A stretch of 63,517 nt of DNA, the filler included, from Malassezia furfur (lineage: Eukaryota): the NCBI GenBank assembly GCA_052055015.1. It is 8 parts of 8 records of this genome, joined end to end, with 100 filler letters (N's around TTAATTAATTAA, not from the genome) between each part and the next. Parts side by side here need not be neighbours in the genome. Positions count along the whole stretch, not along the records: positions 1 to 7,953 come from JBQJIT010000478.1; positions 8,054 to 15,972 come from JBQJIT010000479.1; positions 16,073 to 23,949 come from JBQJIT010000480.1; positions 24,050 to 31,916 come from JBQJIT010000481.1; positions 32,017 to 39,871 come from JBQJIT010000482.1; positions 39,972 to 47,783 come from JBQJIT010000484.1; positions 47,884 to 55,651 come from JBQJIT010000485.1; positions 55,752 to 63,517 come from JBQJIT010000486.1. The stretch is one strand, 5' to 3'. Position numbers and translations under genes: made by a program. Positions 445-62,238 of the stretch are shown here, piece by piece. The notes under the pieces were generated by a model, which did no database searches, was not told the DNA's origin, and was given only the letters and a program-made list of their open reading frames with translations. Numbering within the stretch: the first letter of the stretch is position 1; the number at the start of each line of letters is the position of its first letter.

Positions 445-1799
445 TTATTCAAACGTGGTGCGCTTGCCGGCCGATGGCTGGATTGCATAATGCTGACGCG
501 GCGCGGCCGCGTTCGCGGCCCCGGGCCGCAGCCGCGTCGGGCCACGTGATCTGCCAGGAACACGACGCGGTGGTCCCTGAGATCCGCGCGCGCCAAGGCC
601 AGCGTCCGATGCGTCCGGCTCCGCGTCGGCAGGGGCATCAGCGGACGCGTCCGCCGGCGCCGACGCCTCTGAATCTACCGCATCGTCGCTCGGCTTGGGC
701 GCACGACGCCGACGCGGCGTAGGTACATAGTCAGGCAGCAGGTTGCGCGACGCGCCGCGACGGATCGCATCGACGCCCGCGTACTCAAGCTGCAGCGAGC
801 GGCCCAGCAGCCGACCGTTGCGCGGCTCGAGCAGCGCCTGTGTCGCCTCCGTCGTAGACGCAAAGTCGACAAATGCAAACCCTTTGCACTTGCCCGTGTC
901 CTCGAACGTGCCCATGCGGATCTTTTTGATTCCCGCGCCCGGCGGATCGGCATCGCGCGCGTCTTCCGCATCGTTCTCGTGCTCCTGGAGGTATCGCCGC
1001 TGTGCGGACCCGTCAAGCAGCTCCCGAATTGCTGCCTCGGTCGTCTCAAAACTCAGGTTTCCCATGAACAGCGTCGGACCGGCCGGGTTGCGCTGCGCTT
1101 GGAGAATCTTTTGAGCAGTCTTGGTCAGGCCAGTGCGGCCGCCGGACGCGCCGTGCGCCCCTGTCAGCGCCGTGACATCCAGCCCGGGACGCCCGGTAAA
1201 GTCGCTGCCGTTCTTGATCAGCAGCCGGCGCCCGGCCAGCTGCTCTTCAGACAGGGCCATGCATGCTTCGACCTGCGCCTGCGACGGCAGATCCACATAC
1301 GCAAAGCTAAGGTCAGACAGGCCACGTACCCCTTGTTGTACTCAAACTTGCGCACACCCTGCGGCATATGCACGCGACTGATGCCTTCGATGTCGTGATC
1401 ACGCAGCCATTCGGTCAGCTGCTCCTGTGTCGTCGAAAAGGCCAGGTTGCCGATCCACACACTGTAGGGGCTGCGCTTCGGACGCGCGGGCGCACTCGGC
1501 GTACTGGGCGTGTCGTGCGCCTCACTCGTGCGTGCCTCGGCCTTTTCCATTCGGCGTCGCTTGCGCCGCTCCTTGTGCGACAGCGGCGGGTCCTCGTCGT
1601 CGGCCGCCGGAAGATCGGCGGACGCCGACGCCGACAGATCCGCAGCCTCGGCCTCCTCCGGCTCCTCGGCCGCGGCCACATCGGGTACCTCCGACTCGGC
1701 CCGCCGCTTTTTCTTGGGCGCCTCAGCCTCTCGCGCCTGGGCGCGCTCTGCCTTGCGCGCCTTTCGCCGCTCCTTGTTCGTCAACTCTTCCTCCGCCAT
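445..1799 (-). CDS. NOP13: Nucleolar two-RRM RNA-binding protein (Nop13-like); one 23-nt intron at 1307-1329
   Basis: Basic/acidic N-terminus. RRM1 SVWIGNLAF...NKG|FAYVD is restored by removing GTACGT..CTGAC..TAG. RRM2 is LFMGNLSF...KIRMGTFEDTGKCKGFAFVDF. Confidence 0.85.
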
Positions 1800-1856
1800 C
1801 TATTCCACAAAAAAAAAAAACCTCCGCTGCAGTCCTCCACAGTGGAGGTAGGAAGA

Positions 1857-4097
1857 CTACCGAACCGTGCGGCCGCTGCGCCGCCGCGTGTCGTCTGCGG
1901 CGACCGCAGGGTGTGCCTCGATCTCATCCGCGTTCCACGCGGGCTTCCCACGCAGTTTTCGTGTCTTGCTCGGACTGTCCTCCTTGGGCTGGTATAGGTC
2001 CTGCGAGTCATCCAGGACATTGGTCGACCGCGGCGCAAGAACGGGCGAGTCAAAGACGGCACTGTCGTCGCCCGACACAACGATCTCGTCACTGTCCATA
2101 CTCAGCCGACTCGTCTCGCTGCGTGCGCGCGATCGCGGCGTGGGCGCAGAGAGGCGCGCAAACAGGTCGATCTTACGGTCGGTAAATGCATCGTTCGCCT
2201 CCATCTCGGTCCTTAGCTGTTCTTCGTAGTAGGCTTGCATCTTCTTGAGTGCCTGCTCGAGATGCGCGGCCATTTCGTCGCGCACCGTCTTTTCAATGAT
2301 GGTGCACAGGTTCTCTGCGCGTTCACACTGCGTTAGCCATGCACGTACCCGCTGCCGCAGCCGCTCGTTCTCTTCCAGGAGCATCGTCACGAACGGATCC
2401 TCCTCGTCCTCCTCGTCGCTCGACTCGGCCTGCGTCGAGGCGCTCGCTGTGCGCTGGACGAGCGTATTGGCCGGCTTGCTCGGCGACGCGCTCGGCGCTA
2501 CATGGATACCGACGTCCTTGGCCATCGCGCTGAACCGCATCACATTCGTGCTCTCCTCAAAGCCCGTCCCGTACGGATTCACGTTGACGATCATCACCAC
2601 CGACCCGTCCCCGGTAAAGAACGACTGGAAGAGCTCGGTGAGTTTCGAGTGACGGAACGGGATGATGCTCTGCCGCCGGCGTGGCTTGCCTGGGCCGTCC
2701 TGCGGCTCGGGGCGCTCGCGCGGCGCACAGATCCCGGCACGGATCTGGTTCTTGCGCATGATCTCGAGGCACTGGCCGAGGCACATGAGGCTCTTGTTGA
2801 TGTTGCCCGCCTCCTTGAGCCGCGGGCCAGTCGGCACGTCCGTGTTCGCCACGCGCTCGCTGCCGGCGAGGTCGACGATGCTCATGCGCGACACAAAGTA
2901 CTTGCGGCTCAACCCCGCAATGTCCTTGTCGTCGACGTCCACCTGCGTGTGCTCGCGGAGCACCTTGATCGTGAATACGCTGTGCGAGCGCGAGCTCGCA
3001 TGGTTCGCCATCGTGCCAAACACGCTGCGATTCTCCTGCCCGCGGTACAGCAGCTCCTTGGCCTCGGCGATCGAGTGCACCTTGACCTCTTTGAGGCCGC
3101 CGACGTACTTACCACCGCTCTCGACCTCGCTCTTGAGCAGCAGCGGCCGCCGCGCGGCGCCCGCATCCGTGTCGGTGCGTGTATCGCGGAGCAGCGACGG
3201 GGCGGGCGTCGGCTCGAGCAGATCGTACAGCTTCTCGTTGTACACCTCGACGTAGCTGACCCACACACTGTACCGAAAGGCGTCCGACACCGGCACCGTC
3301 GTCGGGTCGACGTCCCAATGCGGCGCGGGCGTCGCGCGCGCCCTGGCGTCGCGCAGCAAGCTCTTGACCGGGTCCGACACGCCGGGCTGCACGCCGGAGA
3401 GGCCCATGGGCCGGATCTGGGTTAGCCGCGAAACGTACCGCCTTGGTGCACTCCAGGCCGGCGGTCGAGTTGAAGATGACATCGATCGCACGCGGCAGGA
3501 TGCCTGCCTCGCCGGGCTGCTGATTGCCCTGGACAGTGTACGTCTTGCCCGAGTTGGTCACGCCGTACGTAAACACGAGGCTGTTCTTGCCCTGCAGCAG
3601 ATCGGCCACGAGCGGCAGCGTCGTCTCGGCGAAGAAGGTCGACTGGCTGTCCGCCGACGACTCCGCGCTCTGGAACACGCGCGAAAACGTGTAGCGCGCA
3701 GGCGCGGCCGCCTGCGCGCGCAGCCGCGAGGCGCGCACCGTCGTGCCTGCCGACGGATGCGGCGCCATCAGCACGTCTGTGTCCGAGAGCACGTCGAGCG
3801 CAAACGACTTGGGCGCGTCGCCGGGCGGGGGGCGGATGCGCAGATACGCCTGGGTGAGTGTGCGCGACGTACGTGGATCGGCTCGCTCGACACGCCGAGC
3901 TCGGCAAGGCGCGCGACGCTCGACGCGGACGGCGTGCGGAGGGCCGACATGGGCACGCGGCCGCCGACTGCGCCATGCAGCGTGCGCTTCGTGGGCGACT
4001 CGGCGCGCTGCTCCTTCTGTGGCGAGGCTGCGCCCGGCATGCGTGCAGGGGTCCGCGTCGCGTTCCGCCGGTCGGTCAGCGCCGCGGCGTGCGACAT
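1857..4097 (-). CDS. Kinesin-6 family motor (Klp9/MKLP-like); introns 3850-3872 (23 nt), 3417-3438 (22 nt), 2328-2348 (21 nt, in-frame)
   Basis: EPIH|AYLRIRP, P-loop YGVTNSGKT, long loop-6 insert, NHASSRSH, DLAGSER, IPFRHSKLT, C-terminal coiled coil. Three ORF-track pieces are joined by canonical micro-introns. Confidence 0.88.
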
Positions 4098-4159
4098 GGC
4101 GAACCGTGCGGAGTGTTTGCCCCGCGACGCGTTGGTCACGTGCGTTTGCGAAGACGACG

Positions 4160-5807
4160 ATGCTACGTGCGAGCCGGGGCACGGCCCTGCACCGCGCGCT
4201 GCGGACGACGTTGGTGCAGCACGGCAGCACGGCGTGGGCGCGTGGAGTGTACACGCCTCCGGCCGTCGGGCAGCCGCTGCCACACACACACCCGCACCTG
4301 TTTCCGATCGACTTTGCGCGCGGATGGCAGGCGGAGCACGGCGGGGGCGTCGCGACCGACCACCTCACGCCAGGCATCCCGGCCGCCGAGTACGAGCAGC
4401 GCCGGCGCAACCTCATGGACCGTCTGCCGAGCGGCAGCGTGGTCGTGCTCATGGGCGGGCGCATCAAGTACATGAGCCGCAACATCTTGTACGTGCACTC
4501 CACTGACCGCGTAGCTACAAGTTCCGCCAGGAATCCAACTTTTGGTACCTGACCGGCCTCGAGGAGCCCGATGCGGCGCTTGTGATGGGTGCGTGGAGCC
4601 CACTGACGCAGTGAAAAACGGCTCGCGCCGCGGCTACGCCATGACGCTGTTCGTGGCGCCGCGCCAGGCGAGCAAGGAAGTCTGGGACGGCCCGACGTGT
4701 GGCCTCGACGGCGCGGTCGAGGTGTTCGGCGCGGACCATGCGGAGCCGAACGACCCGTCTGTGCTCTTGCACGTACTCAAAAAGACGCTCGCCTCTGCGG
4801 AGCACCTGTACGTCGACATGCCGGCACAGGCGACCGTGCCGCGCCTCAGCCAACGCTCGCAGCGCTTCAGCCTGCACGACTTTCTCGCACCCCCGTCGCC
4901 GACGGGCTTTGACTTGTTCGCACGCAAGACCGACTTTGACAATGTCGTGCGTCTGCTGAGCGACCGGCGTAACACGCACTCGCTGCAGCGCGAGATGGAC
5001 GTGCTGCGCAGCCGCAAGAGCGCCAACGAGCTGCGCGTCATGCGGCAGGCCGGCGCCATCAGCGGCGCGGCGATGACCGAGGTGATGCGTGCCGTGCGCC
5101 CCGGGCTCCCCGAGAGCGAGGCGCAGGCCGTGTTTGAGTACGAGTGTGCGCGGCGCGGCGCGGCGCGGCAGGCGTACGTGCCCGTGTTTGCCTCGGGGCG
5201 CAATGCGCTCATGATCCACTACGTGCGCAACGACTGCCTGATTGGCGACGAGCAGGTGCTCTCTGTGGACGCGGGGTGCGAGTTTGCGGGGTACGCGTCC
5301 GACATCACGCGCACGATGCCCACGGCCGCGGACGGGCGCTTTACGCCCGCACAGCGCGACATTTACGAGGTGCTGCTGCGCGTCCTGAAACAGTGCACGG
5401 CGCTGGCGACCGAGCGCCAGGGCTACTCGCTCGCGGCGCTGCACCGCCGCTCGGTCGAGATGCTGAGCAGCGAGCTGCGTGCGCTGGGCTTCTCGCTGGG
5501 GTACGGCGTGCTGGAGCGCACGCTGTACCCCCACTACCTGGGCCACTGGCTCGGGATCGACCTGCATGATACCAGCACCGTGGAGCGCTCGACGCCCCTG
5601 CGGGAGGGCATGGTGTTTACCATCGAGCCCGGCCTGTACATCCCCGACGATCCCGCGTTCCCCAAGGAGTACCGCGGCATCGGCATGCGCGTCGAGGACG
5701 ACGTCGCCGTGGGCGACTCGGAGCCGTACGTGCTGAGCGCCGACGCGCCCAAAGAGGTCGTCGACATCGAGGCGGTGTGCAGCGGGCGCCTGCCGCGCTT
5801 CGTATAG
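4160..5807 (+). CDS. ICP55: Mitochondrial intermediate cleaving peptidase / Xaa-Pro aminopeptidase (M24B); introns 4489-4514 (26 nt), 4589-4611 (23 nt)
   Basis: Arg-rich presequence MLRASRG. GQPLPHTHPHL, YKFRQESNFWYLTG (after splicing), DAGCEFAGYASDITRT, HYLGHWLGIDLHD, TIEPGLY, GMRVEDD. Confidence 0.88.
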
Positions 5808-5817
5808 TACAGTGCAT

Positions 5818-6421
5818 CTACAGCAAATCGAAGTCGTCCAACTCGTCGTTGTAGTTGGCGATCGCGCGCCGGATCTTGCTGGTGTCGACCCAGGTGACGC
5901 TGGCGGTCAGTGCGGAGGCAGATACGTACAAGTCCTCGAGGTTACGCGTCACCAGGAACGCGGGGTCGGTGATCGTGTCGGGCCCGACGCGCACATGGCC
6001 CTGCTCCACGTAGCGCACCGCCTGCGACACCGACTCGCTCATGTGCAGCCGCACCATGACGACGGGCAGCCGCCGGCGGCAAAAGGCGCTCACGTTGACG
6101 CGCTCCATGATGTCGCTCATCTTGGCGCCCGTGTCGAGCAGTCCCATATCGTACAGCTTGTTCAGCAGCATGGCCTCCTGCTGCGCGCGGAACGGGTCCG
6201 CGCTCGGCAGCGTCGAGAGGCGCAGCGCGAGGTTGCGCACCTTGCCGACGAGGTTGTTGTACTTCTGGTAGTCGTCGCGGTCCTGCAGATGGTACCTGCG
6301 CATGACCTTGATCTCACGCAGGTTGTTCTCGTTCTTCCATTGCAGGAAGTCGTGCCTGGGTTAGCGGCGTGGCGGCGTACTTCTTCAGCAGCTTCTGCTC
6401 GTGAAATTTGAGCTGCCGCAT
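5818..6421 (-). CDS. IMP3: U3 snoRNP protein Imp3 (S4 domain); introns 6356-6380 (25 nt), 5900-5929 (30 nt, in-frame)
   Basis: [53 protein letters not shown]-terminal DDFDLL. Confidence 0.93.
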
Positions 6422-6494
6422 CGTGGTCGGTGGGTGCGGCGATTTTTTTTTGGATTGGTCAGCGTGGAGGTGCGCGCGAAGCTTTGCCACCAGC

Positions 6495-7953
6495 ATGGCC
6501 TTCTCGGGCGCCTTGGTACGTGGTGCATGCTGACGCAGTCGGTGACCGACCTGAATGACTACCTAGGCCCCTCGCAGGTGTGCATCAAGCCCGTCGAGGC
6601 GCCCGCGCAGAGCGCCCCGCCAGGCGGCGAGGTACGTCGGCCGCTCACACAGACGGAAATCGCCATCGACCAGGGCACATACTACGAGTCGAACGGGCAG
6701 CGCGCGCGCACGCAGCTCGAGACCGCACAGATCTCGCTGAACGACTGCCTCGCATGCAGCGGGTGCGTCACGAGCGCCGAGACGGTGCTCATCGGCATGC
6801 AGAGCATCGACGAAGTCGAGCAGGCGCTGGGGTCGCCCGGCGGCCGCACGTTTGTCGCGTCGATCAGCCCACAGTCGCTCGCATCGCTGGCGACGCGCTA
6901 CGCATACGCACACCCGTCGTCGTCACGCGACGGACCGCTCACACTGTCGACGCTGCTGCACCGCATTGCGCATGCGCTCCGCCAGCGCGGCTTCCATGTG
7001 GTGACCGACACAAGCTTTGCGCGGCACCTTGCGCTCCGTGAGCACGTCCGCGAGTTCCGCGAGCGCCGTGCCGCACGCGACTCGGGTGCGCAGGACGCGC
7101 CGCGGCTGCCGATGCTGGCGTCGGCGTGCCCGGGGTGGATCTGCTACGCGGAAAAGGCGCACGGCGAGCTGCTGCCGTACATTGCAGCCACCAAGTCGCC
7201 GCAGCAGGTCGCTGGCGTGCTCGCGAAGAAGTGCATCGGCCCCGCGCATGGCGGCGCACCCGTATACCACGTCGCGGTCATGCCGTGCTACGACAAAAAG
7301 CTCGAGGCGAGCCGCCGGCAGCTCGAGCACGAGGGCGTCAAGGAGGTCGACTGTGTGCTCACCACCGGCGAGCTGCACGACCTGCTTCTCGCGTCGCACT
7401 TCGACCCCTATGCGCCCGTGCCCGACGAGGCCGCACCGAGCGCCTGGCCGCAGCTGCTCCAGGAGCCGGGGAGCAGCAGCGGCGGCTACTTATTTGCTGT
7501 GCTGCACTGCGTCTGGGCCGAGTGGGTCGCCGCCCACCCCGGCGCGACGCCCGCGCTCGAGCTGCGCGTGATCCGTTCCGTGGACTACACCGACTACGTC
7601 CTGCGCGCGCCCTCCGGCGAGACACTCTTCCGCGGCGCACAGTGCTACGGCTTCCGCAACCTGCAGAACCTCGTGCGCAAGGTGCAGCGCGCCACCGGCG
7701 CCCGCGGCGCGCGGCGGCCGGGGCGGGGACGCATGGTGCGCCGCGGCGCGGACGACGACGCGGCGTATGACTACGTCGAGGTGATGGCGTGCCCCGGTGG
7801 GTGCGTGAACGGTGGCGGGCAGATGCGCCCGCCGGAGGGCGCCGGCGCACTGCGCGATGCAGACGCCGACGCGAGCGCCCAGGGCTGGCAGGGCACCGAC
7901 AAGTCGTGGGTGCAGCGCGTCGAGGCCGCGTACTGGGTCGACCCGAGCCGCCG
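6495..7953 (+). CDS. NAR1: Cytosolic Fe-S assembly factor Nar1 (Fe-hydrogenase-like), 3' truncated; introns 6516-6538 (23 nt), 6632-6652 (21 nt, in-frame)
   Basis: MAFSGAL|SVTDLNDY..CIKP, ISLNDCLACSGCVTSAE, SACPGWICYAEK, VMPCYDKKLEA, YVEVMACPGGCVNGGGQ. Confidence 0.93.
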
Positions 7954-8053
7954 NNNNNNNNNNNNNNNNNNNNNNNNNNNNNNNNNNNNNNNNNNNNTTA
8001 ATTAATTAANNNNNNNNNNNNNNNNNNNNNNNNNNNNNNNNNNNNNNNNNNNN
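7954..8053. other. Artificial contig spacer (N run, TTAATTAATTAA, N run); identical spacers at 15973-16072, 23950-24049, 31917-32016, 39872-39971, 47784-47883, 55652-55751
   Basis: Each spacer is 100 nt with stops in all six frames. The flanking contigs are ordered by decreasing length: 7953, 7919, 7877, 7867, 7855, 7812, 7768, 7766 nt. Confidence 0.97.
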
Positions 8054-8745
8054 GCCGGCGCCGGCGCCGGTGTGGGGACAACGCCCGCTGCGGCATTCTC
8101 GGTCCAGGACCCGCCGCGCCACGACAAAAAGTTGCCTAGCATGTCCTTTCCGTGCTCGCTGATCACGCTCTCGGGATGATACTGCACGGCTTCCATCGTG
8201 TACTGCTTGTGTCGAATACCCATGATTACGCCGCTGTCGACGTGCGATGTCGCCTCAAAGCACGCGGGCAACGCGGCGATGCGTGTCGCGAGACTGTGGT
8301 AGCGTGTGCCCACAAGCGGTGTCGGCAGCCCACGGAACAGCCCCTTTTGGTCGTGGACAATGTCGGATACTTTGCCGTGGAAGATCTCGCCGGCGTACTC
8401 GACGATGCCGTCGAACGCCGTCACCATGCTCTGCAGGCCCATGCAGATGCCCAGGATGGGAATTTTGCCGACAAAGTGCCGGATGCACGCCATCGAGATA
8501 CCCGCATCGTGTAGCGGGTGTCCGGGACCCGGGCTGATCACCAGGTTGACCGGTTGCAGCGCGTCGAGCGTCTCGAGCGTGACGCAGTCGTTGCGGAAGA
8601 TGACGACATTGGCGCCGCGCTCCACAAGATACTGTGCGACATTGAAGGTGAAGCTGTCGTAGTTATCGATCAGCACCGTGATCCCTTGCTCGGGGCCGCG
8701 CGGCCCGGGGATCACGATGCGTCCGTCCGCTTCTTCCACCACCAT
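8054..8745 (-). CDS. TRP3: Anthranilate synthase component II (class I GATase) domain of the multifunctional tryptophan biosynthesis protein, 3' truncated
   Basis: LIDNYDSFT, VISPGPGHP, PILGICMGLQ, GEIFHGK, RYHSL, VQYHPES. Start at MVVEEADG (8745) is inferred. Confidence 0.9.
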
Positions 8746-8772
8746 CGACGTCCACACCGGAGTGACTAGGCG

Positions 8773-8780
8773 CACGTGAC
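8773..8780. promoter_or_regulatory. Cbf1-type E-box (RTCACGTG) in a divergent promoter; also at 14567-14574, 54364-54372, 62286-62293
   Basis: Exact motif inside four very short head-to-head intergenic spacers. Confidence 0.55.
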
Positions 8781-8792
8781 TTGACATCGACC

Positions 8793-10251
8793 ATGACGCG
8801 CGAGGCCAGCACGCTCCTGATCGTGCATGACGCCCAGCGCGTGTTTGCGGGCGTGGGCATCCAGGACCCATTCGCATTGCCGGATGTGGTATGTAGCGCC
8901 CACTCACACAGGTCGTCCCTGCTCGCGTGGGTCGCCGCGCCGACCACACTTACCTCGTCGGCCCCGCGCTGACCGACGCCGAGACCCGCGGTGAGGAGCT
9001 CACGATCCGCTTCCCAATCGAGAACGGGCGCGTGGAGGACTGGGATGCGCTCAAAGCGCTCTGGTACGTCATCGGTGCGCCTCACACAGGAACCATGTCC
9101 TCGAGGAACTCAAGGTGCACCCCGCACACAACACCTTCTTTACGATGATTGGCCTCCCCATGCCGCTCCCGCGCGAGGCCGCCGAGCGCACGGCCCAAAT
9201 ATTTTTCGAGCAGTTCAACACACCGGCTTTGTCGATCAGCGAAGTGCCGCTGCTCACCGCGTACGCGGCTGGCGTCCTCAACGCGCTCGTCGTCGACATC
9301 GGCGTCGAAGAGACCAGCGCCGTGGCCATCAGCGACTGTGCGGTGCTGCCCACCACCGCAGTGCTAAGCAAGCTCGGCTCGGTGCACTGCACATGGTGGC
9401 TCGCGTACCTCCTCGCGCAGGATGCCGCCGTGACGCGCGCGCTCGAGCCGCTCGTCACGCCGGACCTGAACATGAGTGCGCTTGCCTATGCACTGGCCCA
9501 GGTACTGGTCGCCGAGGGCAATGTGCGTATCGACGTCTCGTCCAACGTGCCGGGCGTCAATGAGCCAGATGCGGACGATGCAACGTTTGATGTCGCCGCG
9601 GCGCTCGTCGAGGGCCGCGAGCACGACGTGGTCAGCCAGCGCAAGCGCGCCGCGCAACAGGAAAAGGCGGACGACACGATCCACGTCGCCTTCCGCGGCG
9701 TTCAGGTGCCGATCGGGCGCGTGCGCACGCGCTTCCACGAGCCGCTGCTGCACCCGCAACTCCTGGAGCGCGTGCACCTCGACGTGCCGGCGCCGCCCGC
9801 GGTGCAGCAGGCGCTGCATGCGCGGCAAATCGGCGGCGAGCCCATTTGTGTATCGGTGCCCGACACGATCATCATGGCCGCGCGGCAGGTGCAGCCGCTC
9901 GAGCGGCGTGTGCCGCTGTGGGAAAACGTGGTGATGACCGGCGGCATGACGCAGTTCAAGGGTCTCGTCCCGGAGCTACTCCAGGCGCTCACGGCGTTCA
10001 TGATCAACGAGCAGACCGAAACCGCGCAGGTGGTCGGAGAGCCGAACCCGCAGCAGCCGCGCAGCGCGCGAGCACTGCGCGTGCCCGAGTACTTCCCGGC
10101 GTTCAAGGACCGTCTCGATTTGCTGCCGTACCTCGGCGCGAACATTTATGCAAAACTCGTGTTCAACGACATGTCGGGCCGCAACTATATCTCCAAGATG
10201 CAGTACAACGATGGCGGCCCCTCGGTAGCGTTTGCGATTGGCAGTGGATAG
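8793..10251 (+). CDS. ARP9: Divergent actin-related protein (Arp9-like, SWI/SNF/RSC); introns 8889-8911 (23 nt), 9064-9089 (26 nt)
   Basis: FPIENGRVEDWDALKALW, QIFFEQFNTPAL, LVVDIG, WENVVMTGG, RVPEYFPAFK, YLGANIYAKLVF. Actin fold is clear; the subfamily call is from recalled similarity. Confidence 0.72.
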
Positions 10252-10312
10252 TAGGCGAGACACGGCGACAGAAATATGCGGACACATGGCCCCGCGCAGC
10301 GTGCCTGGGCCT

Positions 10313-11956: not shown

Positions 11957-12001
11957 GACGGGAGAAGAAACACGCCGCCCCGCTTCCGACACCTCCACCC
12001 C

Positions 12002-12960
12002 ATGCCGTCCGCGCTACAGAGCATCACGCGGTCGCTGCCGTGGTTCGTACTGGACCCGGCGCGGTACTTGCTAGGCGAGGTACGCGGCGCTCGCACTCAC
12101 GCAGCAATGCTTTACGTCGCTCGTGTGGGACGTGAACTGGACCGACGTGCCGTGCCTCCGCCTGGGGCTCAGCAAGGGTCTGGGCCTCGGCATCGTCGTG
12201 TTTGGGAGCATCATTAAGTTTCCCCAGATCTACAAGATCGTGCACGCGCGTAGCGCGACAGGGATTAGCCTGGCAATGTACATCCTCGAGGTCGTGGCCT
12301 ACACCATCAGCCTCGCGTACGCGATCCGACTACACATCCCGTTCAGCACGTACGGCGAGAATGCAAGCCTGACGGTGCAGAGTACGTCGCAATGCTCACG
12401 CAGACATGATCATCACGCTGCTGATCATTGCCTACTCGCCCATGGACACGTACTCGCGGCGCGTCACGACCTTTTGCCGCGCACGCGGCATCACCACCAA
12501 TGCGCTGTACGTGAGCGTCGCAGCGGCTGTCATGGTGTTGTGCTCGCTGGCCCTCGCGTCCGAGACCGCGGTGCCCCCCGCGATGCTCAAGACGCTCCAG
12601 CTGTTTACCATCCCAGTGTCGCTGGCGTCCAAAGTGCCGCAGATGCTCGAGCTGCATCGCGACAAAGCCACGGGACAGCTCAGTGTGTTGGTCGTCTTTG
12701 CCCAGCTGCTCGGTACCCTCGCGCGCGTCTTCACCACGCTCACCGAGACCAACGACCGCCTGCTGTTCTGGGGCTTCGCGCTCGCCACCGTGTTCAACGC
12801 GGTGATTGCCGTGCAGGTGCTGCTTTATTGGAACGGCAACGAGAAGCGCGCGGCCCTCCACGAGGGCCGTTGGTACGAATCGGTGCCGGTTGGACGACGC
12901 AACGTGAGCGAGCTGCCAACGACCATCAGCCCCGCACGCGGGCTCCCTAAGCGCGACTAG
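12002..12960 (+). CDS. MPDU1: PQ-loop protein, mannose-P-dolichol utilization defect 1 family; introns 12080-12104 (25 nt), 12382-12403 (22 nt)
   Basis: LSKGLGLGIVVFGSIIKFPQI, PFSTYGE, SKVPQM..TGQLS, LARVFTT. Multiple transmembrane segments. Confidence 0.88.
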
Positions 12961-12967
12961 TTCTATA

Positions 12968-14551: not shown

Positions 14552-14606
14552 GGTGGGCGGTTGCAGCACGTGACTTTTCCTGTCGCTTCGTTTGCTTCCT
14601 GCGAAG

Positions 14607-15782: not shown

Positions 15783-15807
15783 CGGTAGAAGCAGACGGCG
15801 TCACAGA

Positions 15808-15972: not shown

Positions 15973-16119
15973 NNNNNNNNNNNNNNNNNNNNNNNNNNNN
16001 NNNNNNNNNNNNNNNNTTAATTAATTAANNNNNNNNNNNNNNNNNNNNNNNNNNNNNNNNNNNNNNNNNNNNTAAAAGACAAAAAGGGAAGAGGTATTCG
16101 TCTGTTCTCTTATGTTAAT

Positions 16120-16500: not shown

Positions 16501-16506
16501 TGTATC

Positions 16507-44524: not shown

Positions 44525-44551
44525 GCACGGCGGTTCAAGTGGTACCTCCAC

Positions 44552-47783: not shown

Positions 47784-47883
47784 NNNNNNNNNNNNNNNNN
47801 NNNNNNNNNNNNNNNNNNNNNNNNNNNTTAATTAATTAANNNNNNNNNNNNNNNNNNNNNNNNNNNNNNNNNNNNNNNNNNNN

Positions 47884-50800: not shown

Positions 50801-53227
50801 CAGCGCAAGTAGTGTCTGGTGCACCTGGGCGACGGCCGGGTGCGTCTCGAGGAAGGCTACGCACCCGGGCGCCACCAGCTCCGCCCAGCGCTGCAGCACG
50901 ACCGAGGCCAGGCACTTTTGCAGCGCCGACATCGACCCGAGGTAGGTCTGCAGCAGCTTGCACGCCTCCTCCTCGGCGGGCGGCAGGCGCGCAAGCACTT
51001 CGCCGAGGGCCGTCGCGGCACCGAGACGCCCGCGGATCACGGTGTCGATCCCGACGAGCGTCAGGTCTTGGGACAAAATACCCTTGTCGACGTCGTGCTC
51101 AATCCGCGCGCCGGCGGTGGTCTGCGCGGGCTTGTAGAAGAGCTGGTAGTCAATAGGCTCGCCGATTGGCATCATGACGATGCGGAAAAGCGTCGGGATG
51201 TACGGCAAGACGCACGCCGCAAAGCGCTCCAAGTCCGCGGCCAGCACACCAAGCACCTGCGCCCAGACGCGCGCGGTGGCGTCGCGGATCGGCGCGCGCT
51301 CCTCGACAATCATGTTCTGGAAGAGGAGACGCACGAGCCGCTCATCCACCCATGCGTGGTCTGCCGCGTCCGCCTGCAGGAACGCATGCATCGCATTCAG
51401 CACCGACAGCCGCACACTCGTGATCGTGTGCCGGAAAAAGGTGTACAGCAGGGGTATCAGCGCCACGAGCGCATGCTCGCCCGTGCGCGTCTGCATCACC
51501 TCCATCACACGCGCATAGCCAAACAGCTTCGCAAGCAGGTCCATTACACCGCCCGTGCTGCTCGACAGGTCGTCTTTCATGTCACTGATGCACGACCACA
51601 GCTGGTCGAGCAGCGCAGGGATCCGGTCGAGGTGCTGCTCGACGAGCTCCTCGGTGACGGGCAGCAACGTCGCCGCCGCCACCGCACGCACGTCGTCGTC
51701 CGCGTCGCGTAGACCAAGCATCGCAACGTCCACCACATCGGTGAGCATGTCGCTCCCGAGCGCCACGTCGCGTTCTTCGTCCGCGCGCTGGCGCAGCAGG
51801 TCATGCCGCACCGCCACCTCGTACTTGAGGCCGAGGAGGCCCGCGTGCCGCACCTCCCACACGTACTCGGTGCGCCGCGCGCCTTGCTGTGCATCGGGCG
51901 CCTTGACCGTGTCCTGCCGGATCATTTCGAGGAGCACAGCATGCGTCTGCCGCACGAGCGCACTGGTCATGTGCGGCAGCAGCTGCGCAAGCGTCTGCGA
52001 GGCCGTCTCACGCACGGGCGCCACCACCTGGTCAAACACAAAGTCGCCCAGGCGGTCCAGCGCAAAGACGCACAGCAGTCGCACGGCCAAATCCTCGGCC
52101 CACACGGCGTGCCGCGCAGCGTTGGACGTATGCGAGACGCCCACGCGCCGCCCGCCGCCGGTGCCCTGCGTGCGAAAAAGCTCGCGAAGGCCCAGCGCCG
52201 CGCCGTGCCGCGACTCCCACGTCGGCGAAAACAGCTCGAGGCTCAGCAGCTCGGCCAACGCACGGAACGGCCATTCGCCAGGCGCAGCCTGCAGCGAGAC
52301 CGTGGTCGCAGCCGCTGGCTTCGCCTCGGCGTCACCCTCGAGCTTGACGCGCTTCTCCTTCTCTTCGTCGCCGCGCGCGGGCGACGGCGCAGCGCCGCCA
52401 ACGAGGGGGAGCGGCGATGTGCCACCGGGACGCGCATTGCTGTTCATCTTCGCCTCGTTCTTGCGCTTGCGCTTCAGTTGGTTGCGCTCGCGCGCACTCA
52501 GCTGGCGCTCAGGCACCTCCTCGACCTCGATCTTGGGTGCCGGAGGAACTTCAGCGGGCACCTCTTCCTTCTTGGCCGGCTTGCCTTTGAGCTGCAATTC
52601 CGAATCCATATCGACGCCGACGTCAATGTCCTCGCCGCCAAAGCCCAGGCCAAGCTTGCCTAGCAAGTCTTTCTTCGCGTGCTGCAGCCGCTCGCTCGAA
52701 AGTAGCTCGGGCACATCATACTCCTTCCCGGCCGATGCCAAGAGTTTCGTGCCGGCGGTCAGCAGCGTACTCAGCGAAAAGTCGGCAAACTTGAGCGGCG
52801 CAGGGCCAGGCGTAGCATCGGCAGGCGTCGCCGCTGCTGACGCATCGCCCTCGTCTTCGGTCTCGGTCCCGCTCGGATCCCACGTCCCCGCCGCGAGCGA
52901 AATTTGGTATATGGCCTGCGCGGCCGCATTGCGGGTTTCCCACGACTTGGACATGAGAAGCGGCACGACGCGCGCCAGCAGCGACGTAACTTCGCCCCAC
53001 TCGCCCTCCACGCCGCAGTAGGTTGTGGTGGGCGCGCCGGCACCGTGGGTGGGCGCCGCAGACGCCTCGGAGGACGCCGGTGCATTGGACTCGGTAGTGC
53101 TTGCGCCGCGCACGCGCAGCGCCGCGATCTGCCCGAGTTGCACGGCGGCCGTCGACCGGATCGACTGCGAGGACCCAATGTCCAGCAGCGACACGAGCCG
53201 GTCAAGACGCGTGGCAGGAGAGCCCAT
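47884..53227 (-). CDS. MOT1: TBP-associated SNF2 ATPase Mot1/BTAF1, 3' truncated
   Basis: TRLDRLVSLLDIGS, WESRHGAALGLRE, LDRLGDFVFDQVVAPVRET, GILCDDMGLGKTLQ, ILDEGH, HDWNPMKDLQAMDRAHRLGQ. Confidence 0.95.
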
Positions 53228-53433
53228 GATCGGCGGTGGTTAGGAGTCCGCCAGAGGGTACACGGGCGCTACCTCGCGTATAAAAAGAAGCCGCGGAGGT
53301 GGTATCACGCAATACTGCACAGATGCGATGCTGTGCCCAATTCTGCGTTGCGTGGACGAGACACCAAAGTTGCCCCACTGTCCCCCACACGTCCTTCGCA
53401 CGGCGGCCATTTTTTGGCTGCAAGATGGGCGAC

Positions 53434-53441
53434 TTTATATA
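53434..53441 (-). promoter_or_regulatory. TATA box (TATATAAA) upstream of MOT1 and of a structured element
   Basis: Consensus TATA in an otherwise GC-rich context, about 210 nt upstream of the MOT1 ATG. Confidence 0.5.
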
Positions 53442-53778
53442 TCACGCGCGTCGCCGGCAGGGACTCGACGTAATTCCCCAAATCGCTGTCGGCCGCGCCG
53501 AGCCGAAACCCCGCGCTTGGGCCATGTCGTACTGGGGACCAACCAACCCACCCCCCCTTGTTGTGCATCCCATCGCCAAGCCGACTTCGGCCCGTATGGT
53601 CGTAGTCAATGCAAACACATAGGCAGTCGTCCACACGTCGGCCTCGCGCTACGGAATGGCTCATGACGTCGCACACAACCCCCTGACCGTGCACGTGGCG
53701 CCCCATCTGCAGCAACACTATCGAGCGTGTAGCAGCCCTTTCTGAACGAAAGCGAGGAACGTATCGTCTATATCATAC

Positions 53779-54312
53779 CTAGCGATCCTCGGCCCATTCC
53801 TGTATAAGTCATGGGGCGCACAACGTACGTTTTCCCGGCGGATCTGCGCCTCCTCCTCCGGCGTAAAGTCGTTGTGGATATTGAACAGCTTGCGGATCTC
53901 TTCGGGCTGCTTGCCCTTGATCATATTCGCACTGCCTGTCAGTTTCCCGTAGAACATACATCGTCTTGCAGCCCACATCGAGCAGGCTTTTGATATCGAG
54001 GTAGTTGGCCGCCAGGATGATTTCAAACAGCATCTCTTGGTCGACCTGGATAAACTTGGCATCCCACTCCGAAATGTCTGTTGCACGACGCCGCATCTCG
54101 TCCGCATCGTCGCTGGTCGTCGGCAGATCGTTGCGGTGGTGGCTGCAGTACTCCAGCACCTTGGCCAGCACACTCGACGAAACGTTCGGCAGCGGGATCG
54201 GTTGATCCGTCTCGCCAATGTCCTCGATCATCTGCTTGATGAGCACCGACCGCTCCGCCACATCGCGGTCGACGGTAAAGTGCTCGTTATCCGACGTCGT
54301 TAGCAGCACCAT
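53779..54312 (-). CDS. SKP1: SCF subunit Skp1; introns 53932-53959 (28 nt), 53800-53828 (29 nt)
   Basis: [66 protein letters not shown]. Confidence 0.96.
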
Positions 54313-54399
54313 GACTGTACGACACGCTGGGGCGACACGCGTGCCGACCGCGGCCGAGGCACTGTCACGTGATGCGAAGAACCGCGGCGAGGATTCCTC

Positions 54400-55651
54400 A
54401 TGGCGTCCAGCTGGAGGAGTGCGGTGCGTGCGCTTCATGCGGTGCGCACGCCGTCCGTGGCGCGCACGTACAGCTCGCAGGTGGCGCCGGGTCGTCCGGT
54501 TGCCTCGGCAGCGTCTGTCGCTGTCGGGGTGACCGCGCCGGCGCCGGTTGTTGAAGTCGTGGGGCCGTACCGTCGCGAGCGCCGTGCCGAGCGCAAGCGC
54601 CAGCGCAAGGCCACCAAGAGGCGCAAGCAGACTGATTCGATTGCTGCACGCCTCGGTGTGACGGAGCAAAAGGTCGCGCCGCTTGTGCGTACCGACCACC
54701 AGTTCAAGACGTTCAAGCCGATCACCCCGTCGATCCGCTGGGTGCGTCACCCGCTGCAAACCGAGCTGCACCGCGGGCGGCCGGTCCGCGCGCTGACCAT
54801 CGCGAAGCGCAGTAAGGGTGGTCGTAACCACCACGGCCACATCACGGTGCGTGGGCGTGGCGGTGGGCACCGCCGCCGTCTGCGTCTCGTCGACTTTTAC
54901 CGCTGGGAGGCCGGCGAGCAGCGCGTGGTGCGTCTCGAATACGACCCGAACCGCAGTGCGCACCTGGCGCTGATCGAGCACAATGAGACCAAGCGGCTGA
55001 GCTACATCCTGGCGCCCGACCAGCTGTCGGTCGGCGATACAGTGCAGAGCTACCGCACCATGTCGGACGCGACCGAGGGCCCTTCGTCGGGCAGCAGTTT
55101 GGACTTGGGTATTTTCCGTACGCACGCCATCCGCCCCGGCAACGTGCTTCCGCTGCGCCTGATCCCCATCGGCACGACGATTCACGCGATTTCGCTGCAG
55201 CCGCTGGGTCCGGCGAAGCTGGTGCGTGCCGCTGGCACCACGGGGCAGCTCGTGGCCTTTTCCAACTACCGCCAGCCGGATGAGGCGCTCGAGGAAGGCG
55301 AGACGCGCAACGCGACGCACGCTCAGGTGCGCCTGTCGAGTGGCGAGGTGCGTCTCGTGCCGGTCAACTCGTGCGCCACGATTGGCGTGGTGAGCAACAA
55401 GGACCACCAGCACCGCCGTTTGGGCAAGGCCGGCCGCTCGCGCTGGCTTGGGTGGCGCCCTAAGGTGCGTGGTACGGCGATGAACGCGGTCGACCACCCG
55501 CACGGTGGTGGTCGTGGCAAGTCCAAGTCGAACAAGGTGCCGCGCAGCATTTACGGCTACCCCAAGAAGTTCCAGCGCACGCGCAAGCCTGGCACTCGTG
55601 GCGGCAACCGCATGGTGCTGCGCGAGCGTCCGCGCCGCAACGGCAAGCGCG
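54400..55651 (+). CDS. RML2: Mitochondrial ribosomal protein uL2m, 3' truncated
   Basis: Presequence, [58 protein letters not shown]. Confidence 0.93.
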
Positions 55652-55751
55652 NNNNNNNNNNNNNNNNNNNNNNNNNNNNNNNNNNNNNNNNNNNNTTAAT
55701 TAATTAANNNNNNNNNNNNNNNNNNNNNNNNNNNNNNNNNNNNNNNNNNNN

Positions 55752-58259
<2,508 letters not shown>

Positions 58260-58405
58260 GCACACACCCGCCTGTGCGGTCAGCGGAACACGAGGGCCCT
58301 TGGCAGGGCCCATGTGTCTTACATAAGCCACCTAGCAATCCTACGTAAACAGAATCGCGCTGGCTACGTGGAGCCCGTGGAAGTTTCGTCGTCCACGTTG
58401 TACCG

Positions 58406-59317
58406 ATGTCGTACGGGCACTCTTCGTTCGTGCCCCCGCAGCACATGTCTCATGACCCATACCGCTACCCGCGGTCATCCTCGTCGTCGAACGAGTGGGT
58501 CCAGCGTGTGAAAGACTACTCTTCGCAGGCCGAGGATGTGATTGACACCTGGTCACAGCCCATCAAGCCTTACCTTCCGGCGCTCGGTCGGTTCCTGATC
58601 GTCGTGACCTTTTTGGAGGATGCGATCCGCATCATCACACAGTGGGGGGACCAGACGACCTACCTTAACCGCTACCGCGGTATCCCCAACTTCATCACAC
58701 AGCTCTTCCTGCTCATCAACGTGGTCATCATGGTGAGTGCGTCGGTGCTCGTTATTATCCGCCGCTACCCGGAGATCAGCGTCGGGTCGCTGCTCGGTGT
58801 GATTGTTCTCCAGGGCCTGGGGTACGGTTTGATCACCGACATGAACTTCTTCCTGCGCAACCTGTCGGTCGTCGGCGGCCTGCTCATGGTGCTGTCGGAC
58901 AGCTTTGCGAACCAGCGCAAGAACATCTTTGCGGGCCTGCCGAGCATCAGCGAGACGGACAAGCGCATCTACTTCCAGTTTGCAGGCCGCGTGTTGCTCA
59001 TCTTCCTGTTCATCGGGTTCGTCTTCCAGGGCGAGTGGAGTTTCTTCCGCGCCGCGGTGTCGGTGCTGGGCTTTGGCGCGTGCATCATGGTGGTGGTCGG
59101 CTTCAAGGCACGCTGGAGCGCCATCTTCTTGGTCATGCTGCTGAGCATCCTCAACATTGCGGTGAACAACTTCTGGACCGTGCACTCGGCGCACCCGCAG
59201 CGCGACTTTTTGCGCTACGACTTCTTCCAGACGCTCTCGATTGTGGGCGGCCTGCTTCTTCTGGTCAACATGGGCCCCGGCGGCCTGTCGATGGACGAGC
59301 GTAAAAAGGTGACATAA
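58406..59317 (+). CDS. ERV29: SURF4/Erv29 ER cargo receptor
   Basis: KPYLPALGRFLIVVTFLED, FFLRNLSVVGGLL, YDFFQTLSIVGGLL, GPGGLSMDERKKVT (dilysine tail). Confidence 0.93.
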   Translation: MSYGHSSFVPPQHMSHDPYRYPRSSSSSNEWVQRVKDYSSQAEDVIDTWSQPIKPYLPALGRFLIVVTFLEDAIRIITQWGDQTTYLNRYRGIPNFITQLFLLINVVIMVSASVLVIIRRYPEISVGSLLGVIVLQGLGYGLITDMNFFLRNLSVVGGLLMVLSDSFANQRKNIFAGLPSISETDKRIYFQFAGRVLLIFLFIGFVFQGEWSFFRAAVSVLGFGACIMVVVGFKARWSAIFLVMLLSILNIAVNNFWTVHSAHPQRDFLRYDFFQTLSIVGGLLLLVNMGPGGLSMDERKKVT

Positions 59318-59403
59318 AGGTGATGGCCAACGACTGTGCGGGTCTCGCGCTGTTTTGTAGAGAATTCGAGACCCGGTTGTGACGAAGTATGCAATTAGGT
59401 ACA

Positions 59404-60352
59404 CTACGAATGGGGCACCACGCGCGTGCCGTCCGGCTGGATGCCGCACGCCTTGACGAGCGCAGGCCAGTACACGTTAAAGTCGAACTCGTATGGGTAC
59501 GTTCCGCCCGGGAACTGGTCGTCGAGCTGGTCGGGGCGAATGAATTCGGTCATGTCGGGGTGATTGAAGCGGATCTTGTCCTTGGTGACCGGGTCGAGGA
59601 ACGGCGAGAGCGCCGTAAAGAAGGCCGTGATGAACTTGGGCGTGTGGCACACAAACGCACGGCCCAGGCGCTCCACGTAGTGGTTTTGCAAAATGTGCGC
59701 GACGTGCCGCGCGGTAGAGAGCGACGGCGTGGTGGACAGGCTCGCGCCGTGGAAGTCGACGATGATCGTGAGTGTTTCCTGGCCCGGGGGCATCAGGTTG
59801 ATCCCGCGCTCAAGACTCCAGACCAGGTAGCGAATCTGGCGCGGGCTCGTCTTGGTGTTTTCGCGGCCCGGGCGGAGATAGAGGATCGGACGGCCCTGGC
59901 GGTCGAATCCATTGAGGACGTGCTTTCCTGTGGTGGCCTCCGGTGCCACTTCATCGGGCGGGATAATCTCTGGCTTGAACTCGCGGCGCCATTGCAGCGT
60001 ATCCTGTGTGAGAAGGTGCGCGAAGAACGGCGGTACGTACGATGATGCGGCGCTTGGACGATCGCAGATCGCCGCGCGTGGCACGCAGGTAGCGCTTGTA
60101 GACGTTGTTGTCCTGCAACCAGGCCTCTTCGTATTTTGCGTACGCCGGCTCACACGGGTGTGCCTGGCGGTGCTCTGCGACGTGTTGCTCGAGCTCCAGA
60201 AGCTTCTCCTCGTCTCCCGGCTGCAGGGCAGGCGGGGGTGCAGGCTTCTCATCGGCGGTTGGCGTGAAGATCACCGCGGTGGTGCGCGGCGTCTTGTTCG
60301 CGTCGGCCTTCTCGGCCTTGTCCTTCGCGCCACCTTTGAACAGAAACGACAT
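59404..60352 (-). CDS. PDR16: CRAL-TRIO phosphatidylinositol transfer protein (Pdr16/Sfh3-like); 37-nt intron 60004-60040
   Basis: RYLRATR, |DTLQWRREFKP, TTGK..LNGFDRQGRPILYLRPGRENT, LQNHYVERLG, PFLDPVTKDKI. Confidence 0.85.
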
Positions 60353-60439
60353 GGCCGGTGTCCGGAAAACTAAACTCCGCCCGCCGCGGACGTTACTTTT
60401 TTCTCCACATGGCGCGCGGCCCCGTTGGATCGCTATCGG

Positions 60440-62238
60440 CTACACATTCGCGGTGGTCTGCAGGGCGTGCGTGGCATAGTAGCGCACGTCCGCGTCCCGG
60501 TCCTCGCTGAGGACTTGTAGGGCCGGGTTGATCTTGTCCTGGATGCTGCGCCGGCCCTCGGGTGTCTTGCTGAGCTCGGTCGAGAGCGCCTCGAAGGCCT
60601 TGGCGACGTTGAAGCGGATGTTGGGCACCGAGTCCTGCACCATGGGGAGCATGGTCGTCAGGACGCTGTTGAGGATCGTGTCCGTGTCCAGCGACGGCGC
60701 CATGGTCGTCACCGCAAAGATGGTCGTCATCCGGTAGAGGTAGTTGGGGTGCGTACTCATCTGCAGCACCTTGGGGATGATGGTGGTGCGCGCCCACTCC
60801 ACGCCGAACACCTCGGTGAGCTTTTTCAGGTTAATCGTCGCGGCCTCGCGGATGGAATAGACGGTGTCGCCCAGCCAGCTCATGCACAGGCTGCTCAGCT
60901 GCTCGTTAAAGAACTGCACGCCGAGCTGCAGCGCCAGGAGCGGGATGTTTTCAATGATCGCCTGGCGCACACGCCACTGCTTGTCCTCGGCAAGCTCCAT
61001 GATGGCGGGGAGCAGCGACTGGGACAGGAGGTCGATGCCGATCACCTCGTTCACCTGTTCGAGGCGCGAGATGATGTTGAGGCGCACGTCCGGGAACTCG
61101 TCCTTGAGCAGCTGCAGGAAGAGCGGCAAGAGGTGGTCGATCGTCGCGTCCTTGCCGAGGAGCGGCGCCAGCGCACTGATCTGCGCCGCAAGCGCTCCAC
61201 GCACGTGCTGCGACGGGTCGTCGGCGAGCTCCTTGGCGACCGGCATCAGGTGGTCCAAAATCGTCTGCTGGTCCATCAACTTGGCCAGGCCCGGCGTCTG
61301 GCTCGCGGCGGCCGTGCGCACCTCGGCCTCGGCGTCGCGCATGAGATTTACGTAGGCGGGCACGAGGTCCTCTTGGACCACCTTTTCGTTCACGGCCGAA
61401 GCCAGCTTCACAAAGTGGTCCGCGGCCATGTAGCGCACGCGCCAGCTCTTGTCCTGGAAGGCGGCGCGGATCGAGCCGAGCAGGAGCTGCTGCGTCTCGT
61501 TCTTATCGAGAACCTCGGCGATCGCCACGAGGTCCTGCACGGTGAGCAGGCGCACCGAGTCCTGCTCGTCGGTCGACAGGCGGCGGTATAGCGGAAGGAT
61601 ATCGGAGACGACCAGCTCCTTGGGCATCTGCTTCACCAGTGCGCTCATGTCGCGCGCGACGGCGCGGCGCACCATGGGCGTGTCGTCGTGGCACAGCATC
61701 GCAAACATGCCGAGCAGCTCGGCGCGCATCGTCGCCGGCACGCGGTCGTATACCGAGGCGAACAGCGAGGCGGCGCTCGTGCGCGACGTGAACCAGTCGC
61801 CGTTCGAGAGACGCTTGAGCAGCGGGAGGTAGTATTCCTGGACCTGCTGCTCGCTCAGCACCTTGGCGATCTTGTTGATCGACTCGCACGCCTGCGTGGG
61901 TCAGTGGGGCGGTGGGGACGCACCTTTTCGCGCACGACGGTCTCCTCGACGGTCGCCAGGTTTTCGAGCGGGCCAAGCAGCAGATGCGCATGCTGATTCC
62001 CGCCCAGGTATTCCGAAAAGTTGGCATCGAGCTCCTCGGCGAGCGCGAGCAGCACCTCGTCCTCGTCGTCGAGCGACTCGTGGAGGAAGGGGATCAACTC
62101 GTCGCGCGCACGCTCGGGGCCGAGCGCGAGGGCGATGGTCGAGATACGGTGGATCGAGTTGAGACGCAGCGTCACATCCTCAGACTTCAGCTCGTCGATT
62201 AAGATCGCGATGGGATACAACTGCTCGTCGTCTTCCAT
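60440..62238 (-). CDS. TPD3: PP2A scaffold subunit A (HEAT repeats); 32-nt intron 61892-61923
   Basis: [72 protein letters not shown]. Confidence 0.95.

Follow-up and report, generated by a model that had tools for sequence, protein, structure and literature searches.

The stretch of Malassezia furfur DNA analyzed here (the window, 63,517 bases) carries 27 introns, most of them very short (21-32 bases), all beginning with GT and ending with AG and all lying on the coding strand of a Pfam-identified gene; their structure, origin and likely mode of recognition are the subject of this work. The window is composed of eight unlinked pieces of ~7.9 kilobases (kb), with an N44-TTAATTAATTAA-N44 spacer at each of the seven joins. 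The G+C content is 63-70% in the seven pieces with nuclear genes and ~25% in the third piece. The pieces and spacers are laid out as follows.

1-7953, first piece; spacer at 7954-8053
8054-15972, second piece; spacer at 15973-16072
16073-23949, third piece; spacer at 23950-24049
24050-31916, fourth piece; spacer at 31917-32016
32017-39871, fifth piece; spacer at 39872-39971
39972-47783, sixth piece; spacer at 47784-47883
47884-55651, seventh piece; spacer at 55652-55751
55752-63517, eighth piece

Because the pieces are separate and genes are cut at their ends, no inference is drawn across the spacers. A first-pass annotation of this DNA had described the introns as one system extending over a single stretch, 1307..61923. 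The introns themselves stand, whereas the contiguous locus does not, as this interval runs through eight spacer-joined pieces. One window exon matches an NCBI-named M. furfur protein (P0121) with 100% identity over 313 residues, and another is 98% identical to the M. furfur MPDU1 homologue P0139.

We rebuilt the introns independently from motif matches, joins between open reading frames (ORFs) and one homology-based correction. For comparison, a scan with a kinesin exon provided contigs L001-L004, which are metagenome contigs of other Malassezia species, syntenic with the first piece. The 27 introns, with their lengths in nucleotides (nt), are listed below together with the evidence at each junction, which is marked by a slash where peptides are quoted.

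1307-1329, minus: 23-nt intron of an RRM-protein gene, phase 2; motif and frame, KGFAYVDL gapless against intronless L002
2328-2348, minus: 21-nt kinesin intron 3, branch A at position 16; gapless in 13 of 14 homologues and against L002
3417-3438, minus: 22-nt kinesin intron 2; gapless in 14 of 14 homologues and against L002
3850-3872, minus: 23-nt kinesin intron 1; EPIH/AYLRIRP aligned with homologues and L002; frame
4489-4514, plus: 26-nt aminopeptidase P intron 1; AMP_N 1-31, then 34-57; gapless against L002
4589-4611, plus: 23-nt aminopeptidase P intron 2, after a 74-nt exon; AMP_N 34-57, then 63-121; L002
5900-5929, minus: 30-nt IMP3 intron 2; NLED/FVTWVD gapless against L002; frame
6356-6380, minus: 25-nt IMP3 intron 1; gapless against L002; introns at the same site in L001 and L003
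6516-6538, plus: 23-nt NAR1 intron 1, after codon 7; MAFSGAL/S.. as in L002; L001 intron at the same site
6632-6652, plus: 21-nt NAR1 intron 2, branch A at position 16; frame; L002 alignment with indels nearby
8889-8911, plus: 23-nt intron 1 of an actin-related protein (ARP) gene; motif and frame; if retained, a stop after 27 codons
9064-9089, plus: 26-nt intron 2 of the actin-related protein gene; Pfam Actin 29-78, then 86-358; frame
11837-11858, minus: 22-nt intron of phosphoacetylglucosamine mutase (AGM1); motif and frame; exon 2 matches 4bju_A from residue 37
12080-12104, plus: 25-nt MPDU1/PQ-loop intron 1; gapless in 11 of 13 homologues; same junction in P0139
12382-12403, plus: 22-nt MPDU1/PQ-loop intron 2; ENASLTVQ/NMIITLL gapless in 12 of 13 homologues
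13910-13931, minus: 22-nt MFS transporter intron 2; gapless against P0126, P0127, P0129, P0130 and P0132
14424-14446, minus: 23-nt MFS transporter intron 1, GAG acceptor; AADN/MWIQGIA against LADT/MWMQGIA in P0137
31036-31060, plus: 25-nt intron of a lysine methyltransferase (Methyltransf_16) gene; motif and frame; Pfam domain in the downstream exon
38977-39003, plus: 27-nt intron of an AreA-type GATA-like gene; GATA_AreA 5-28 of 28 from residue 1 of the downstream exon; frame
40375-40406, plus: 32-nt intron of a helix-loop-helix (HLH) gene; motif and frame; if retained, a stop after 7 codons
47095-47121, minus: 27-nt intron 2 of a Pil1-like eisosome gene; gapless in 13 of 14 homologues
47715-47737, minus: 23-nt intron 1 of the Pil1-like gene; NSEL/KDLQNLI aligned in 13 of the 14 homologues that cover it
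53800-53828, minus: 29-nt SKP1 intron 2; ..IRREN joined to EWAEDR-stop; non-consensus branch motif
53932-53959, minus: 28-nt SKP1 intron 1; exon 1 to residue 121 of 2ass_A, exon 2 from 123
57488-57594, plus: 107-nt ARG5,6 intron; Semialdhyde_dh 1-111 of 121 upstream, dimerisation domain in the next exon; stops inside; frame
60004-60040, minus: 37-nt intron of a CRAL-TRIO (Sec14-like) gene; CRAL_TRIO_N 1-52 of 54 in the upstream exon, CRAL_TRIO in the next
61892-61923, minus: 32-nt intron of PP2A scaffold subunit A; exon 1 matches 9j5i_D 5-105, exon 2 106-583

The lengths (21 nt twice, 22 nt four times, 23 nt seven times, 25 nt three times, 26 and 27 nt twice each, 28, 29 and 30 nt once each, 32 nt twice, 37 nt and 107 nt) have a median of 25 and a mean of 28.4 nt, with 13 of the 27 introns no longer than 23 nt and 22 shorter than 30 nt. 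Ultra-short introns are defined by a median below 30 nt, and the median of 25 nt in this 55-kb sample lies within that range. Both the number and the length distribution, including the median, agree with those of the first-pass annotation. The four examples quoted there (2328-2348, 3417-3438, 6632-6652 and 12382-12403) were found again at the same positions; their strand had been left unstated, and the first two lie on the minus strand.

The intron pattern occurs far more often than chance would provide. Using the strict form GTACGT N6-14 CTNAC N1-6 AG, we counted 15 matches against 0.18 expected from 100 dinucleotide shuffles, none of which gave more than 2. A relaxed form (GTRNGY, CTNAY and YAG within 40 nt or less) yielded 31 acceptor ends, each counted once, across the seven nuclear pieces, compared with 9.9 +/- 3.0 in 100 shuffles (maximum 18); 26 of the 31 belong to accepted introns and five are chance matches. 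A screen that joined ORFs across every GT..AG pair was uninformative, with 677 candidates in DNA this rich in GC. An origin of the set in chance or in assembly artefacts, for which the five chance matches and a frame break that is a plain 1-nt shift could be cited, is contradicted by the enrichment, the strand, the frame and the colinearity with orthologues, and its probability is close to nil.

The frame break in question lies in AGM1 at about 10913-10921 (minus strand), where the reading frame shifts by 1 nt without an intron: the Pfam profile AMG1_III is matched over 1-33 in one frame and over 34-140 in another, the two parts directly adjoining. The gene looks essential, and the shift reflects either a mistake in the assembly or a genuine lesion. 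It had been proposed that nearly every frame break in this DNA is repaired by excising a tiny intron, which agrees with the frame in 26 of the 27 introns and does not apply to this break. Several candidate introns were rejected. Two on the plus strand (27556-27578 and 28801-28827) lie antisense within SEC8 (26673-31400, minus) and are taken as chance occurrences, because about 10 relaxed matches are expected in this DNA. The segment 61535-61555 encodes SVRLLTVQ, which aligns to human PR65, and the segments 6763-6802 and 12299-12320 are inconsistent with the frame. For SKP1 intron 1, a 24-nt form ending at the first AG breaks the frame, whereas the 28-nt form matches the PDB numbering.

Excision is supported by the reading frame at nearly every site. 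With a codon-usage score trained on eight long window ORFs that lack introns, the best upstream and downstream coding frames agreed with excision in 26 of 27 cases (1/3 expected by chance; P about 7e-12); at 6516-6538 the seven codons of the upstream exon are too few for this test to be informative. At 22 of the 27 sites the length is not divisible by three, so that translation of the unspliced sequence would run out of frame. Colinearity with orthologues or PDB chains was observed at 18 junctions, comprising all ten of the first piece, two each in the MPDU1, MFS and Pil1-like genes, the PP2A-A junction and SKP1 intron 1, where one split codon falls between residues 121 and 123 of 2ass_A. At four further junctions (ARP intron 2 and the AreA-like, CRAL-TRIO and ARG5,6 introns) the Pfam profile coordinates of the flanking exons abut, as they also do at both aminopeptidase P junctions.

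The contig L002 provides a direct comparison for the first piece, as each of its five orthologues (RRM protein, kinesin, aminopeptidase P, IMP3 and NAR1) is an unbroken ORF. Alignment of the spliced window proteins with these orthologues spans 10 of 10 junctions, nine of which are gapless. The three kinesin junctions are colinear with 14 homologues, ranging from Malassezia to Mucoromycota, with two exceptions: one homologue carries a deletion at junction 1, and P0001 reads through intron 3 and then diverges. In MPDU1, the exceptions are P0142, which lacks the part upstream of junction 1 and has a 7-residue insertion at junction 2, and P0166, which has three additional residues at junction 1. 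The 25- and 22-nt MPDU1 junctions are already present in the public M. furfur protein P0139. For AGM1 exon 1 alone, no PDB relative was found.

Five of the 27 introns have lengths divisible by three (2328-2348, 6632-6652, 38977-39003, 47095-47121 and 5900-5929). None of the five contains an in-frame stop, and the depletion of such lengths is not significant (5/27, P = 0.07). Some of the tiny segments, chiefly these five, might accordingly be retained as protein variants or might simply be coding, and the database protein P0216 does translate through one of them, rendering Pil1-like intron 2 as nine extra residues. The read-through proteins are, however, automatic calls on contigs and are not derived from RNA. 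The extra residues are absent from orthologues at four of the five sites (kinesin intron 3, IMP3 intron 2, Pil1-like intron 2 and, approximately, NAR1 intron 2). At 38977-39003 the downstream exon opens directly with the match to GATA_AreA 5-28, and all five sites carry full donor, branch and acceptor signals. We therefore regard retention or coding use as quite unlikely.

Comparison across species bears on the age of the introns. Kinesin intron 2 recurs at the same position and in the same phase in 4 of 10 distant fungal loci (L040, L041, L048 and L059), where it measures 52-83 nt. Within Malassezia, three sites are shared with lengths that differ between species: IMP3 intron 1 measures 25 nt in M. 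furfur against 23 nt in L001 and 39 nt in L003; for the RRM intron the figures are 23 nt in M. furfur, 40 nt (L003) and 29 nt (L004); and NAR1 intron 1 is 23 nt in M. furfur and 25 nt in L001. Over the five syntenic genes of the first piece (448-7951), M. furfur has ten introns and L002 none, while L001, L003 and L004 share some of them; six of the ten positions were met in no other locus compared. L001, L003 and L004 in turn have introns at other sites, in aminopeptidase P at residue 43 and in the RRM protein at residue 298. The motif listing for L001 suggests many candidate introns of 19-29 nt.

This distribution could be read as a series of recent, lineage-specific gains, in which introner-like copies of one short element spread through the M. 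furfur genes: L002 has 0 of the 10 first-piece introns, L001 and L003 have only some, and the introns look alike. The likeness is nevertheless limited to the three signals, with spacers that differ as judged by eye; kinesin intron 2 has counterparts of the same position and phase in distant fungi, and IMP3 intron 1, NAR1 intron 1 and the RRM intron have counterparts in other Malassezia. Loss in the relatives explains the pattern, and recent gain appears to us highly unlikely. Because kinesin intron 2 is common to distant fungi and three sites to other Malassezia contigs, at least some of the introns are old and have since shrunk, rather than being new insertions, and relatives have lost many.

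The signals of the 27 introns are strong and closely spaced. All have GT at the start and AG at the end. The donors are GTACGT (17), GTGCGT (3), GTACGC (3), GTATGT (2) and GTAGGT (2), so that 24 of 27 conform to GTNNGT and the other three are GTACGC. The branch motifs are CTGAC (11), CTCAC (11), CTAAC (3) and two weaker sequences, and the distance from the branch A to the 3' end is 5 nt in 17 introns, 6, 7 and 8 nt in three each and 9 nt in one. The acceptors are CAG (23), TAG (3) and a single GAG, at 14424-14446. In the shortest introns, 6-10 nt separate donor and branch motif, and the minimum is made up of 6 nt of donor, 6 nt of spacer and the 9 nt of CTNAC-N-CAG. The mean G+C content is 61%. 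Between the branch motif and the AG there are 1-5 nt, which leaves no room for a polypyrimidine tract. The plan proposed in the first-pass annotation (donor, 6-10 nt, branch motif and a few nt, with no polypyrimidine tract) is thereby borne out, with 25 of 27 branch motifs matching the consensus. So is the placement of the branch A at 16-18 in the shortest introns, as it occupies position 16 in both 21-nt introns; the YAG acceptor that had been ascribed to every intron is found in 26 of 27, the intron at 14424-14446 ending in GAG instead. At two acceptors the choice among AG dinucleotides can be followed: in SKP1 intron 1, an AG 3 nt past the branch A is bypassed and the AG at 7 nt is used, and in MFS intron 1, homology to the chytrid orthologue P0137 favours the GAG, 6 nt past the branch A, rather than a CAG at 18 nt.

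Such spacing raises the question of a modified early spliceosome. In this proposal, which follows the first-pass annotation, U1 and SF1/U2 would be unable to bind together in the normal way with donor and branch motif 6-8 nt apart, and recognition might proceed by sequential hand-off, with altered U1 or branching factors, or after loss of U2AF-type factors. The proposal fits the 15 of 27 introns whose branch A lies at 16-18 and the missing polypyrimidine tract, and also the donor itself: the textbook U1-complementary consensus has A at +4, where the dominant GTACGT has C. The 37- and 107-nt introns, however, share the same signals, and one machinery thus serves every size. The accessible text on Stentor reports that its authors proposed changed branching-factor regions that avoid clashes with a 10-nt lariat (PMC9505925). 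These local changes are merely conjectured by the authors, who found all small nuclear RNAs (snRNAs) and most core proteins, and lineages with introns shorter than those of M. furfur are described as retaining both (PMC9505925; PMC13644364, accessible portions). A modified spliceosome, in any of these variants, is in our estimation unlikely.

Taken together, we consider it about 90% probable that M. furfur carries here ordinary spliceosomal introns of the U2 type (GT-AG), shrunk to little beyond their three signals. The signals, the frame repair and the colinearity with orthologues are observations, from which we infer removal from the RNA, formation of a lariat and the order in which the small nuclear ribonucleoproteins (snRNPs) act. 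Each intron would present a 6-nt donor (mostly GTACGT), a GC-rich spacer of at least 6 nt and a 9-nt 3' module, CTNAC-N-YAG. Recognition would probably take place across the intron (intron definition), with branch site and acceptor read as a single unit within the 3' module and with the first AG at least 5 nt beyond the branch A serving as 3' splice site. A polypyrimidine tract would not be involved, as in other fungi whose branch site lies next to the acceptor.

Several points weigh against this interpretation. The sample comprises 27 introns in ~55 kb and is not a genome-wide distribution. Because the introns with lengths divisible by three lack stops, their retention would be undetectable from sequence. 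Around NAR1 intron 2 the sequence is variable, and the alignment with L002 shows small indels close to the junction. The case is weaker for ARP intron 1 and for the methyltransferase and HLH introns, where motif and frame point to excision, for the AGM1 intron, to which these add a PDB match of the downstream exon from residue 37, and for SKP1 intron 2, which is suggested by a conserved C-terminus, exon 2 ending at residue 156 of the 159-residue 2ass_A. That the introns are spliced at all, where they branch and exactly which acceptor 14424-14446 uses are likewise deduced from DNA; for this acceptor, the public protein P0122 implies a site 12 nt further on, against the choice of GAG.

The introns of M. 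furfur might further lie at the smallest size that a fungal spliceosome can use with strong, fully canonical signals, a proposal we regard as doubtful. Were it true, the 6 nt between donor hexamer and branch motif and the 5 nt from branch A to acceptor would make side-by-side binding of U1 and the branch-site complex impossible, and recognition would have to be sequential or rely on co-evolved U1 or branching factors. In the accessible parts of the recent literature on introns below 30 nt, we found no mention of such a fungal lower limit.

The remaining contents of the window are described briefly. The third piece contains the following features.

22721-23038, minus: ATP synthase subunit c gene (atp9)
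23341-23549: genes for transfer RNAs (tRNAs) tRNA-Leu and tRNA-Arg (Rfam)

The third piece (16073-23949) is mitochondrial DNA, given that it carries atp9 and two tRNA genes and is bounded by spacers, and a centromeric identity for this AT-rich block at 16-24 kb was rejected on the same grounds. In M. sympodialis, the mitochondrial inverted repeat contains atp9 and the tRNAs Met, Leu and Arg (PMC3560662). A CTAAT tandem repeat flanks a 22-N gap (22094-22115) in this piece. Elsewhere, the window encodes a DEAH-box RNA helicase with HA2 and OB domains (33086-35461, minus) and a protein with two RRM domains (24050-26029, minus), both possibly splicing factors. The Rfam scan returned only the two mitochondrial tRNAs from the window and nothing from L001-L004, hence no snRNA gene in these sequences.

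Introns of this size have consequences for annotation. The prediction that gene callers would mis-annotate these genes proved accurate, as P0121, P0122, P0216, P0142 and P0001 miss, shift or read through introns. Across public and automatic records of M. furfur and close relatives, an exon is dropped, another acceptor is chosen, or introns of 21-27 nt are translated; at MFS intron 2, for example, the public M. furfur proteins P0121 and P0122 both lack the 25 residues preceding the junction. Among proteins of 624-2000 residues, no M. furfur kinesin was found. Callers run with default minimum intron sizes break, shift or read through these genes. Beyond annotation, Malassezia is culturable and transformable, with a typical intron of 21-27 nt and clear motifs, and could serve to test the minimal donor-branch distance; a minimal intron is thereby open to genetic dissection in a yeast that can be grown and transformed. 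The interest lies in an under-used, tractable fungus with near-minimal, high-information introns, the facts themselves not being new.

Tiny introns are already documented for Malassezia, and the class is not new. The accessible text on M. sympodialis gives 5350 introns with a mean of 30 base pairs (bp), 99% of them supported by RNA sequencing mapped with an intron range of 10-2000 bp (PMC5389616), and that on M. restricta gives 2150 introns with a median of 30 bp (PMC9241646), its annotation having allowed minimum intron lengths of 20 and 15 (PMC6473144, accessible text). Very short introns in Malassezia genes are also mentioned in the available part of a review (PMC7426719). The novelty suggested by the first-pass annotation is removed by these reports, and by the 25- and 22-nt junctions of P0139. 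The two species share genus and size class with M. furfur, and L001, of the sympodialis group, has introns of 23-25 nt at orthologous sites. The accessible portions of these papers give means and medians, with no mode, signal spacing or M. furfur figures. Our literature search retrieved no 21-23-nt mode for M. furfur, no signal spacing and no study of the splicing mechanism in Malassezia, although subscription papers, bioRxiv supplements and Fig. S8 of PMC5389616 may hold more. A 2026 survey of lineages with introns below 30 bp covers ciliates, Microsporidia and dicyemids and, in its accessible text, leaves Malassezia unmentioned (PMC13644364).

Outside the genus, Yarrowia lipolytica offers the closest parallel in the 3' module: according to the accessible text of PMC13309789, one nucleotide separates the branch motif from CAG or TAG in 72.5% of its introns, compared with 17 of 27 here, and both species do without a polypyrimidine tract. 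The Yarrowia signals (GTGAGT and ACTAAC) differ from GTACGT and CT[GC]AC in M. furfur, and the introns discussed there measure 100-1826 nt, with no class of 20-30 nt described in that portion (PMC13309789). In size, the nearest counterparts are the GT-AG introns of ciliates, 15-16 nt in Stentor coeruleus and about 25 nt in Paramecium, which like those of M. furfur fall below 30 nt (PMC9505925; PMC5014332, accessible parts). The 15-nt Stentor introns place the branch A at position 10, 5 nt from the 3' end, which equals the M. furfur minimum, and the resulting 10-nt lariats deprive the 16-nt lariat loop, which had been singled out as unusually small, of its standing as a minimum (PMC9505925, accessible text). 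As described in the same source, Stentor introns are U-rich and of near-fixed length with a weak branch consensus, whereas those of M. furfur have 61% GC, a strong branch motif and lengths of 21-107 nt. Medians in the low 20s are given for Microsporidia, dicyemids and myxozoans, for instance 22 bp in two myxozoans, in the accessible portion of PMC13644364; these are parasites with reduced or fast-evolving genomes, whereas Malassezia is a culturable skin commensal.

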